Assembly (NCBI GenBank): GCA_945888435.1
Contig: CAMCZW010000002.1
Location: 14,014 to 78,013, forward strand
From: a bacterium UBP8_UBA817
GTDB taxonomy: Bacteria > Margulisbacteria > Marinamargulisbacteria > SXXA01 > SICP01
DNA length: 64,000 nt
Reading direction: 5' to 3'
Shown: positions 10,618 through 11,908 of the stretch, one piece after another
How positions within the stretch are numbered: the first letter of the stretch is position 1
Layout of the letters: each line of letters opens with the position of its first letter
Notes under the pieces: generated by a model
The model's database searches: none
The model's input: the letters and a program-made list of their open reading frames with translations, nothing else
Told to the model about the DNA's origin: nothing
Translations under genes and position numbers: made by a program

Positions 10618-11118
10618 GTGTACAAAATAATGGCCGTGCATGGCCAATTTTATGATTTATGCTTTGGGGCGACTTTGTCCTGGTATTTAGGGTTGCCGCT
10701 GACTCATGTGAATGTAGTGACGTCGGTTCAACAGGCTCATGTCCATCATGCTCTATCGGGGCATGCGATTTCTTTTTTACCAGGGGTTCTACAGTGTAAG
10801 TTGGGTGTCATAGAGGATACTCCGACGGTATGGGGAGATTTTATGACGGTGACGGAAGGGCCTCTGCTCTTACCTCATAAAAAAATTTTAATGATGAGGA
10901 CTTTATTGGGAGAGGCCATTCATATGGTTGGTATTGAGTGCCAGAGCCTAGGCCAGTGGCTAGTATTTGATCCTTTGACAGACTCAGTCCCTGGGGTGAT
11001 ATGCCAGGGAGATTTAGCTCAGGTGGTGGATAGTCTTACACAAAAACACCATGTCTTACCTAGTGATTGTTATTATCAATGGTTGGGGTATTTACCGCGT
11101 GAGGTTACCAGTCGCTAG
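10618..11118 (+). CDS. Hypothetical protein (166 aa), convergent with and overlapping the kinase-like gene
   Basis: ORF only. His-rich with no recognisable motif. Confidence 0.4.
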   Translation: MYKIMAVHGQFYDLCFGATLSWYLGLPLTHVNVVTSVQQAHVHHALSGHAISFLPGVLQCKLGVIEDTPTVWGDFMTVTEGPLLLPHKKILMMRTLLGEAIHMVGIECQSLGQWLVFDPLTDSVPGVICQGDLAQVVDSLTQKHHVLPSDCYYQWLGYLPREVTSR

Positions 11119-11908
11119 AGGAGGGGTTCACTCCATTGGCTTTAGCTTTTTCAAGTAACTCAGCTCTTTGAGCAGTTGTTAATACCCTATTAGTTACGTG
11201 TTTATTGAGGCTCATCTTAAGGTATCCCCATAACGTACCTTCGCTTCCCTTCATAGGGTCATGACCGTCGATAATATCGATTAAAAGGCCGTTTGGATAC
11301 TGGGCATTGACTGCAATATTTTCTGGTTTAATATCACATATAAAAGGCGTGGTTGTTGCCCATGAATTGATTAGCTTCATATACATTTTAAATACGATTT
11401 CTGATTGTTCTGCAGAATTTTTTGTAGATAATAGGTCTCTTTTCTCTACAAATTGAAAAACAAAATTTCCATTTTTTCTTACTTCTTCTTCTGTATTTAG
11501 AATGCGTGAAAACTGAATGTCTGTCTTATCAAGTAAATTCTGTAAATTATATGCATGGCTGACGAGGTCGTTAATTTTTCTTTCTTGGATTACAGCACTA
11601 TCTTTTTTACCTCTTCTTTTTAACGCATCTCCTTCTAAATTTGGGCTTTTTAAGACTGTGTTGGGATCCCTTCTTGTTACAATCATAAAACTTCCGGTGC
11701 CAAGTACAGTGCGGTCTCCAGGACTTCCGGGACTATTTGGGCTTGTTGGCGATATTTGCATTTCATGAGAGGGTGAAGGAGTTCTAGATCCTGAGACTCT
11801 TTCTAAGGACCCCCATGCTGGACTAATTTCTACTGGAGGTCTTCTTTTTGATTGGTGTTCGGCTGTTGGGCTAGCTGAGCGGCGGTAAGCGATTAATTTC
11901 ATTTTCAT
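11105..11908 (-). CDS. Atypical protein-kinase-like protein with S/P-rich N-terminal region
   Basis: 267 aa. ICDIKPENIAV resembles the HRDxKPEN catalytic loop, and LIDIIDG resembles the DFG region. A candidate Gly-loop is KNGNFVFQFV and a candidate beta3 Lys is IVFKMY. The N-terminal 100 aa are S/P/T-rich and look disordered. Confidence 0.5.
   Translation of the reverse strand: MKMKLIAYRRSASPTAEHQSKRRPPVEISPAWGSLERVSGSRTPSPSHEMQISPTSPNSPGSPGDRTVLGTGSFMIVTRRDPNTVLKSPNLEGDALKRRGKKDSAVIQERKINDLVSHAYNLQNLLDKTDIQFSRILNTEEEVRKNGNFVFQFVEKRDLLSTKNSAEQSEIVFKMYMKLINSWATTTPFICDIKPENIAVNAQYPNGLLIDIIDGHDPMKGSEGTLWGYLKMSLNKHVTNRVLTTAQRAELLEKAKANGVNPSSSDW

Follow-up and report, generated by a model that had tools for sequence, protein, structure and literature searches.

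A convergent gene pair between uvrA and dnaB in an uncultured Marinamargulisbacterium: a predicted papain-like cysteine peptidase and a putative minimal kinase-like protein

The bacterium UBP8_UBA817 (Margulisbacteria; Marinamargulisbacteria) carries two small convergent genes between uvrA and dnaB, and the questions that this locus raises are whether these are genuine genes, what their products may be and what the pair may be for. We analysed a stretch of 64,000 nucleotides (GenBank assembly GCA_945888435.1, contig CAMCZW010000002.1, positions 14,014 to 78,013 of the forward strand), called here the window, and all positions are those of the window. A preliminary description of this DNA, made from its letters and translated reading frames, had seen in one product, of 267 amino acids (aa), an atypical kinase-like protein, and in the other, of 166 aa, a protein with no known motif. 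We find that the pair is a conserved and fast-evolving two-gene unit in a slot of variable content, that the 166-aa protein is predicted to be a papain-like cysteine peptidase, and that a kinase-like nature of the 267-aa protein is plausible and partly supported by its sequence. The combined reading, an accessory cassette of a papain-like peptidase and a minimal non-RD kinase-like enzyme in the variable uvrA-dnaB slot, seems to us evenly poised between holding and failing. The locus is laid out as follows.

7650 to 10415, plus strand: uvrA, which is conserved and borders the variable slot on the left (equivalog model match)
10392 to 10418, plus strand: hairpin and T-run resembling a terminator, at the end of uvrA (consensus match)
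10618 to 11118, plus strand: gene of the predicted papain-like cysteine peptidase, 166 aa (open reading frame, homologues, AlphaFold and Foldseek)
11105 to 11118, unstranded: shared 3′ ends of both convergent genes, 14 nt (coordinates of the reading frames)
11105 to 11908, minus strand: kinase-like gene, 267 aa, encoding a disordered head rich in Ser/Thr-Pro followed by a putative minimal protein-kinase-like domain (open reading frame, homologues P0002 and P0003)
12050 to 13411, plus strand: dnaB, which is conserved and borders the variable slot on the right (equivalog model match)

Both open reading frames (ORFs) are in the ORF list of the window with the positions, sizes and convergent 3′ overlap first ascribed to them, and the equivalog matches confirm uvrA and dnaB as their neighbours. 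Neither protein has a database family, and the 166-aa ORF starts with GTG and overlaps its neighbour, which would suit a long intergenic spacer with misannotated ORFs or pseudogenes in decay; the data already contradict such a reading, to which we give almost no credence. Protein identities of 36–42% have been kept although the DNA has diverged, and starts, lengths and invariant blocks are conserved across three to four lineages. Several ENA and Logan samples contain identical copies of the locus, on many contigs, and beneath the 166-aa gene there is no minus-strand ORF of at least 50 aa, barring the 14-nt 3′ overlap. Because protein homologues exist and occupy the same slot in the same arrangement in related lineages, chance ORFs and pseudogene remnants are excluded, and sequence comparison thus indicates that both ORFs are real genes.

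Homologues are few. A phmmer search of 1.84 billion representatives returned one homologue of the 267-aa protein (P0002; E 1.9e-37, 42% identity) and a profile search of 5.8 billion clusters a second (P0003), the two being 38–42% identical to the window protein, while the 166-aa protein has the homologues P0004, P0006 and P0007 at 36–40% identity (BLASTP E 6e-30). The whole family thus amounts to about three full-length kinase-like proteins and four partners among the billions of sequences searched. A scan of genome contigs with the 267-aa protein found nothing, and a tblastn search of plasmids with the kinase-like domain gave one chance match (E 1). A Lake Mendota co-assembly contig and the Logan contig L082 each hold both homologues in the same slot, convergent and overlapping, and L089 holds a third partner homologue together with a partial kinase-like gene. 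Wherever the context of a homologue is available the pair lies between uvrA and dnaB in convergent orientation, with 3′ overlaps of 52–64 nt (52 nt in L082 and 64 nt in L089, compared with 14 nt in the window), and because the two genes adjoin in this way in the same slot in each case, the pair is a conserved two-gene unit that is inherited together. It is restricted to this lineage, a few lake Marinamargulisbacteria; a DnaB scan likewise assigns the window to Candidatus Marinamargulisbacteria, in the phylum Margulisiibacteriota. The organism is uncultured and has been seen so far in metagenome assemblies only, and the traceable sample of one relative is open water of a freshwater lake.

The two genes evolve far faster than their neighbours. 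Between the window and L082, UvrA is 86% and DnaB 92% identical, and the 521-aa protein encoded downstream of dnaB is 55% identical, whereas the kinase-like protein and the peptidase retain 39% and 36% identity, respectively. Polymorphism of the pair is limited to 0–1 differences over seven contigs, which is too low for measuring selection. The composition of the kinase-like gene is atypical, with the third-lowest GC content among 52 window ORFs and a GC content at third codon positions (GC3) of 0.299, compared with a mean of 0.423 ± 0.073 over the 52 ORFs; GC3 of the peptidase gene is 0.449. Direct or inverted repeats flanking the pair, as expected for a mobile element, were looked for and none was found.

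The preliminary description had also held that uvrA and dnaB are usually not separated by accessory genes, and had seen in the pair an accessory insertion flanked by conserved genes. The first statement stands within this phylum only, and there in part: among the 14 Margulisiibacteriota loci with both genes, the window included, uvrA and dnaB are adjacent without an intervening ORF in six (gaps of 11–371 bp), but the other eight, this window among them, carry unrelated inserts. Named by eye from their translations, the other inserts include a tRNA-binding-domain protein, SIMPL-like proteins, a transaldolase and a major facilitator superfamily transporter, among others. The second statement is supported by this synteny comparison and by a swap seen in L015, the contig from the closest metagenome-assembled genome, whose DnaB is 95% identical over the half of the gene that it holds. 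In L015 the slot is filled by a gene (4233 to 5780, minus strand) for a 515-aa protein whose C-terminal part has a PP2C domain (PF00481, E 5.9e-13) and whose N-terminal half, about 250 aa long, belongs to no family, and no homology between the window slot and this gene was found by tblastn, blastn or HHalign. The uvrA-dnaB interval is therefore a variable slot whose content turns over even among close relatives. The gene of the 521-aa protein (13392 to 14957, plus strand), which has no Pfam family and whose start overlaps the end of dnaB, lies directly downstream of dnaB across Margulisiibacteriota at 21–58% identity, and uvrA, dnaB and this gene form a phylum-wide gene order.

Within the slot, uvrA and the peptidase gene are separated by 202 bp, and the kinase-like gene and dnaB are divergent with a 141-bp spacer between them. 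The peptidase gene begins with a GTG codon preceded, 5 nt upstream, by GAGGGA. Because the consensus scan places a terminator-like hairpin after uvrA and the pair is convergent, each gene may have a separate promoter, which suggests that the promoter of the peptidase gene would lie inside the 202-bp spacer. The same spacer contains a 53-aa ORF on the minus strand (10404 to 10565) with the motif YKVIT...HR.Q, which is similar to the start, about 25 residues, of the L015 PP2C protein. We considered it as a remnant of that gene and rejected this, since the match (9 of 14 residues identical, E 1.4) is not significant; the ORF is also at the wrong end of the slot for a remnant, and the resemblance is probably due to chance.

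Two other observations concern the wider neighbourhood. Between hisH and uvrA the window carries a second accessory insert, a 403-aa AAA_14/DUF4143 ATPase (6429 to 7640, plus strand; GC 0.333, GC3 0.292), for which PADLOC returns the candidate defence family PDC-S01 and which L015 lacks, uvrA following hisH directly there. On the contig that carries P0002 (JGI 3300059473, Lake Mendota), an IS200-like Y1 transposase, an 887-aa protein without a family and a protein with a protein-tyrosine-phosphatase domain (PF00102) are encoded beyond hisH, near the same locus, and add to the signalling-type accessory genes of the neighbourhood.

The 166-aa protein, contrary to the earlier view that it has no known motif, contains three residues, Cys15, His102 and Asp118, that are invariant among the four sequences of its family at 36–40% identity, and its predicted structure matches papain-like folds. 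The residues are encoded as follows.

10660 to 10662, plus strand: codon of Cys15, the predicted nucleophile, within the invariant LCFGAxLSW of the N-terminal helix (alignment and AlphaFold)
10921 to 10971, plus strand: from the codon of His102 (10921 to 10923, in H[MV]VG) to the codon of Asp118 (10969 to 10971, in VFDP) (alignment and AlphaFold)

In the AlphaFold2 model (predicted local distance difference test, pLDDT, 67; predicted template modelling score 0.69; core mostly at pLDDT 78–90) Cys15 sits on a helix (residues 9–24), and His102 and Asp118 on neighbouring strands (101–110 and 113–117). Nearly all of the top 19 Foldseek matches of this model in the PDB are clan CA peptidases or relatives with a papain fold (YopQ, also among them, is uncharacterised here), with three matches at E <= 1e-3 and probabilities up to 1.00. 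The best match is the murine cytomegalovirus M48 deubiquitinase (2j7q, E 3.9e-4), with 8adc and 8adb also among the best E-values, and the matches at probabilities of 0.87–1.00 comprise M48 and VTD deubiquitinases, AvrPphB, GtgE, Josephin-type enzymes and C39 domains (those of ComA and PCAT1), a further match being phytochelatin synthase. In BFVD the matches are to herpesvirus C76 domains (M48 model E 1.1e-3) and phage peptidases. Some caveats attach to the assignment: the confidence of the model is moderate (pLDDT 67) and TM-scores are 0.34–0.52, the Gln that usually forms the oxyanion hole is not conserved in the family, and Pfam and NCBIfam scans and searches of PDB sequences gave no match, so that none of the named families (C39, C58, C76, C86 and others) can be given to it by sequence. 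Taken together, the structural model and the invariant residues indicate that the 166-aa protein has a papain-like fold and is a predicted clan CA peptidase of the Cys-His-Asp type. In such an enzyme Cys15, at the start of its helix, would act as the nucleophile, His102 as the general base and Asp118 as the residue that orients His102, and given this triad the protein would be expected to cleave a peptide or isopeptide bond.

We also considered whether the partner could be a VTD deubiquitinase, a class defined by an invariable Asp-x-His catalytic motif (PMC9741609), and rejected this identity because an invariant Ala stands two residues before the histidine (A100-x-H102) and the acidic residue follows it.

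The case for the 267-aa protein is less direct. The preliminary description had based its kinase-like reading on two motifs, ICDIKPENIAV (residues 190–200) and DIIDG (211–215), both of which are present, and had put the protein at half the size of Hanks kinases, with a 100-aa Ser/Pro-rich head. These measures need revising, as the head spans residues 1–67 (40% Ser, Thr and Pro, with eight [ST]P motifs) and the domain of about 200 aa is about three quarters of a Hanks domain. A basic patch in the head is conserved (KRRP here and RKKRPK in a homologue, whose head is 106 aa long). Two further motifs had gone unnoticed, LGTGSF (residues 69–74, G70-x-G72-S-F), which is identical to the glycine loop of PKA, and TV[LI]K87. 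The features of the protein are encoded as follows.

11708 to 11908, minus strand: low-complexity head, codons 1–67 (composition; pLDDT <50 at residues 1–65)
11648 to 11701, minus strand: GTGSFMIV...NTVLK, candidate glycine-rich loop (G70, G72, F74) and candidate β3 lysine K87 (invariance; alignment to PKA)
11312 to 11338, minus strand: CDIKPENIA, candidate catalytic loop, with D192 and N197 invariant (alignment)
11264 to 11278, minus strand: DIIDG, candidate equivalent of DFG, with D211 19 residues after D192 and the motif invariant (alignment)

At an overall identity of 39%, every assignable residue required for phosphotransfer (G70, G72, F74, K87, D192, N197 and D211) is invariant in the family and falls in one of the four most conserved blocks of its alignment; V77 is invariant too. 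Spacings are close to those of PKA (glycine loop to Lys, 17 versus 22 residues; glycine loop to catalytic Asp, 122 versus 116; Asp to Asp, 19 versus 18), and a Smith-Waterman alignment to PKA is collinear from the glycine loop to the catalytic loop (z = 3.1).

Profile comparisons with HHalign point in the same direction. The three-sequence family scored 27.1 against a three-kinase profile (P 0.0034) and 28.5 against a seven-kinase profile (P 0.002), values that were reached by none of 300 and none of 200 column shuffles, respectively, and the greedy alignment is collinear through the glycine loop, αC, β4, β5, αE, the catalytic loop and DFG. The window domain alone scored 33.8 against the seven-kinase profile (P 2e-4), compared with a maximum of 20.8 among 51 real window proteins. 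For calibration, NleH2, a structurally proven minimal kinase, scored 28.0 in the same test, whereas APH(3′)-II, a true kinase-fold enzyme, scored 18.6, in the noise. Of the kinase reference sequences, those of OspG and Bud32 proved identical to PDB entries, and the eukaryotic protein kinase (ePK) profile behaved as a kinase profile in positive controls (OspG and NleH versus ePKs, P 1e-4 to 1e-6).

A substantial set of observations weighs against a kinase fold. K194, P195 and E196 are in the window copy only, the homologues having DITVDN or DITVAN; taken by themselves, P0002 and P0003 reach 18.5 (P 0.07), and a profile built from these homologues without the window copy reaches 19.4 and keeps the register only for the glycine loop and the Lys, which is aligned with AIK. 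Because the homologues alone score in the noise, much of the signal comes from K-P-E and LGTGSF, which are particular to the window copy, and the P-value of the window protein is inflated because the protein was selected for its motif in the first place. No invariant acidic residue that could serve as the αC glutamate is found in the predicted αC helix (residues 104–127). Pfam and NCBIfam scans gave no kinase family at E up to 10 for any of the three members, full-length or trimmed, and a profile search of PDB sequences gave no kinase; phmmer and hmmsearch runs of both families against PDB sequences returned chance matches only (TRPC4, an Hsp70 fragment and kynurenine transaminase). HHalign was null against OspG/NleH (P 0.21) and against a Bud32/PRPK alignment (P 0.28), the sole stretch aligned with Bud32 being that from catalytic loop to DFG, in the correct register. 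Finally, the AlphaFold2 model, built from the three-sequence alignment, resembles an α/β sandwich and is not bilobal, although at pLDDT 43 it is too poor to count, and a Foldseek search of the PDB with it found nothing below E 0.1 and no kinase.

These points would also fit a different account, in which the 267-aa protein is no kinase but has some other, lineage-specific fold, perhaps an α/β sandwich, the DIKPEN and LGTGSF motifs of the window copy are coincidental and the peptidase alone can be assigned. Such an account draws on the homologues, which are without K-P-E and do not rise above the noise against kinase profiles, on the failure of hidden Markov model (HMM) libraries and PDB sequences to return a kinase, on the missing αC glutamate and the unkinase-like model, and on the way the protein was picked. 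It leaves unexplained, however, why G70, G72, K87, D192, N197 and D211 are invariant at 39% identity with kinase-like spacing, and why the family profile beats every shuffle and every real-protein control; moreover, weak homologue scores do not exclude a kinase fold, since APH(3′)-II also scores 18.6, and the structure model is too poor to decide against one. We therefore regard a non-kinase fold as rather unlikely, and lean slightly towards a protein-kinase-like fold for residues ~66–267. The kinase-like reading first proposed is thus plausible, carried by the invariant catalytic positions and the HHalign score of the window protein but checked by the scores of the homologues, the absence of a match to curated HMMs and the lack of an αC glutamate.

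As to the poor model itself, its weak Foldseek matches to α/β sandwiches (adenylyl cyclases and a S-adenosylmethionine lyase) were discarded. We infer from the order of its helices and strands that they may map onto the elements of PKA with a steady offset of +20 to +27 residues.

If the fold is that of a kinase, the 267-aa protein is most likely a minimal non-RD kinase-like enzyme behind a 67-aa disordered Ser/Thr-Pro-rich head. The glycine loop (G70-x-G72-S-F, in which the third glycine is replaced by Met) and K87 would bind ATP, catalysis would use D192 as its base, and N197 and D211 would coordinate Mg. The catalytic loop is without the His/Arg of (H/Y)RD and has F/M-C-D instead. Because only 56 residues follow D211, with two helices predicted there, the protein has neither the APE activation segment nor the αF–αI C-lobe, and because both the activation segment and the substrate-binding C-lobe are missing, such an enzyme would need an activator or a bound partner or substrate, or would phosphorylate its own S/T-P head. 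Dependence on an activator would parallel that of OspG on ubiquitin or E2~Ub, a ubiquitin-charged E2 enzyme (PMC3585378, PMC11078946). Either protein of the pair may be catalytically active.

The fast divergence of both genes, the unusual base composition of the one for the kinase-like protein, its replacement by a PP2C gene in a sister lineage and the structural neighbours of the peptidase all fit a role in conflict, and the pair may act on the proteins of another organism, be it a phage, a competitor or a eukaryote that is its host or grazer, rather than in housekeeping. The two proteins could be imagined as secreted effectors, yet neither has, as judged by eye, a signal-peptide-like hydrophobic stretch at its N-terminus, and no secretion system was identified near the locus, both of which speak against export. 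The most specific form of this proposal, a rapidly evolving effector cassette directed at a eukaryotic host or grazer and consisting of a new family of minimal kinases, with a Ser/Thr-Pro-rich head and basic patch in the style of eukaryotes, and a new small family of deubiquitinase-like peptidases, strikes us as quite improbable.

A conflict role could also be exercised against phages or other bacteria, as by an abortive-infection kinase with a protease, rather than against eukaryotes. The turnover of slot content among close relatives and the very fast divergence, which fits an arms race, agree with such a defence or inter-bacterial conflict module, and so do the open lake water from which the traceable relative was sampled and the nearby PDC-S01 insert (6429 to 7640, E 4.9e-99), which is absent from L015 and low in GC like the kinase-like gene. 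However, neither protein nor any of the homologues has a convincing PADLOC or PHROG match (best E 0.003 and 0.057), PADLOC assigning no family to the two window proteins or to the homologue of the partner; the match of P0002 to LmuB in PADLOC is short (E 0.003) and was rejected as spurious. Moreover, it would be unusual for a defence operon to consist of convergent genes without co-transcription, as here; most of the enzymes nearest in structure to the peptidase have eukaryotic targets; and the S/T-P head with its basic patch is, in our impression, less like defence proteins than like effectors that face eukaryotes. We consider a defence module improbable on balance, and continue with the reading of the pair as a cassette of a peptidase and a putative kinase-like enzyme.

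Several other genes of the window deserve mention. A 528-aa protein (54862 to 56448, minus strand) has a SET domain (PF00856, E 5.6e-7), and bacterial SET (lysine methyltransferase) domains are often linked to interaction with eukaryotes. Two genes are terpene-synthase-like, one at 39344 to 41161 (minus strand; PF19086, E 2.4e-16) and one at 48275 to 49984 (minus strand; PF03936, E 6e-4, below the curated cut-off), the latter having the lowest GC content of the ORFs (0.306) and adjoining a SpoIIE/PP2C-type phosphatase gene (46823 to 48265; PF07228, E 1.4e-40). An MbnB/TglH/ChrH-family enzyme for the modification of ribosomally synthesised and post-translationally modified peptides (16315 to 17956, minus strand; PF05114, E 3.9e-105) is encoded with a DUF2063/HvfC_N partner, and with a putative DoxX gene (15849 to 16295, named by analogy with L001) these form a trio that is kept in the contigs of relatives. 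Two adjacent genes at 1532 to 3207 (minus strand) encode domains with weak matches to TraF_2 (E 5e-6) and FlgD Ig-like (E 1e-7).

If the kinase fold and activity hold true, the 267-aa protein would represent a new and extremely narrow family of minimal kinases, invisible to current HMM libraries, from a candidate phylum with almost no experimental biology. The partner would be a new and small peptidase of the papain type, closest in structure to deubiquitinases and effector proteases, and under the kinase hypothesis both would be new families within known superfamilies. The junction of uvrA and dnaB illustrates a site at which signalling-type accessory genes are swapped among close relatives, and its content could hint at interactions of freshwater Marinamargulisbacteria with eukaryotes or phages. 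Should the effector reading be true, a hidden eukaryote-associated lifestyle would be indicated, in the class of Ca. Ruthmannia eludens, an intracellular symbiont of placozoans and the only studied member of the class, the others being known from water-column sequences only (PMC6784892); the dnaB-side hotspot would then swap phospho-signalling effectors, a kinase and a peptidase for a PP2C phosphatase. Should the kinase reading fail, what is left is a pair of accessory genes of an ordinary, lineage-specific kind, of which the peptidase alone can be assigned.

Among known systems, the peptidase is most readily compared with clan CA enzymes, to whose structures (1ukf, 7n87, 5xe9, 9fpa and 5kdg) it is matched with Foldseek probabilities of 0.82–0.99. 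The order Cys...His...Asp is that of YopT/AvrPphB (C58), C39, Josephin-type enzymes and GtgE. As in clan CA, a helix close to the N-terminus carries the Cys, and neighbouring strands carry the His and Asp, which are 16 residues apart here; the His-to-Asp spacing in the YopT/AvrPphB, C39, Josephin and GtgE families is 15–18. The best Foldseek E-values in the PDB and BFVD belong to herpesvirus tegument (M48/UL36, C76) and VTD deubiquitinases. The protein has no match to any of these at the sequence level and, at 166 aa, is smaller than most, and unlike the usual C39 domains it is not fused to an ABC transporter.

The kinase-like protein shares with Hanks-type kinases (PF00069) the LGTGSF of PKA and the D-I-K-P-E-N-I of the subdomain VIb consensus. 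It differs from them in falling below every Pfam and NCBIfam threshold, in having no His/Arg of HRD and no APE, αF or later helices, in the Met at the third loop glycine and the DII in place of DFG, and in a K-P-E that is not kept in its homologues. A parallel in architecture is offered by the effector kinases OspG, NleH1 and NleH2 of Shigella and of enteropathogenic and enterohaemorrhagic Escherichia coli (PDB 4BVU, 4LRJ and 4LRK), whose minimal architecture has been described (PMC12756638), and which are delivered by type III secretion and activated by ubiquitin or E2~Ub (PMC3585378, PMC11078946). By sequence the 267-aa protein is not a member of the OspG/NleH family: there is no detectable sequence or profile similarity, the αC glutamate is not identified, the stretch from the Lys to the catalytic Asp is longer by about 20 residues and that after the DFG-equivalent Asp by about 17, no type III secretion context is known here and the host belongs to a different phylum. 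Nevertheless, the layout is alike: an N-terminal part that is disordered or not conserved precedes a kinase core of about 170–200 aa, which ends soon after the DFG-equivalent Asp. NleH has, moreover, replaced the Lys of the catalytic loop (DTTETN), much as the homologues of the window protein have with DITVDN, and has IDI or IDF for DFG, and NleH2 and the window protein obtain similar HHalign scores against the ePK profile (28.0 and 33.8).

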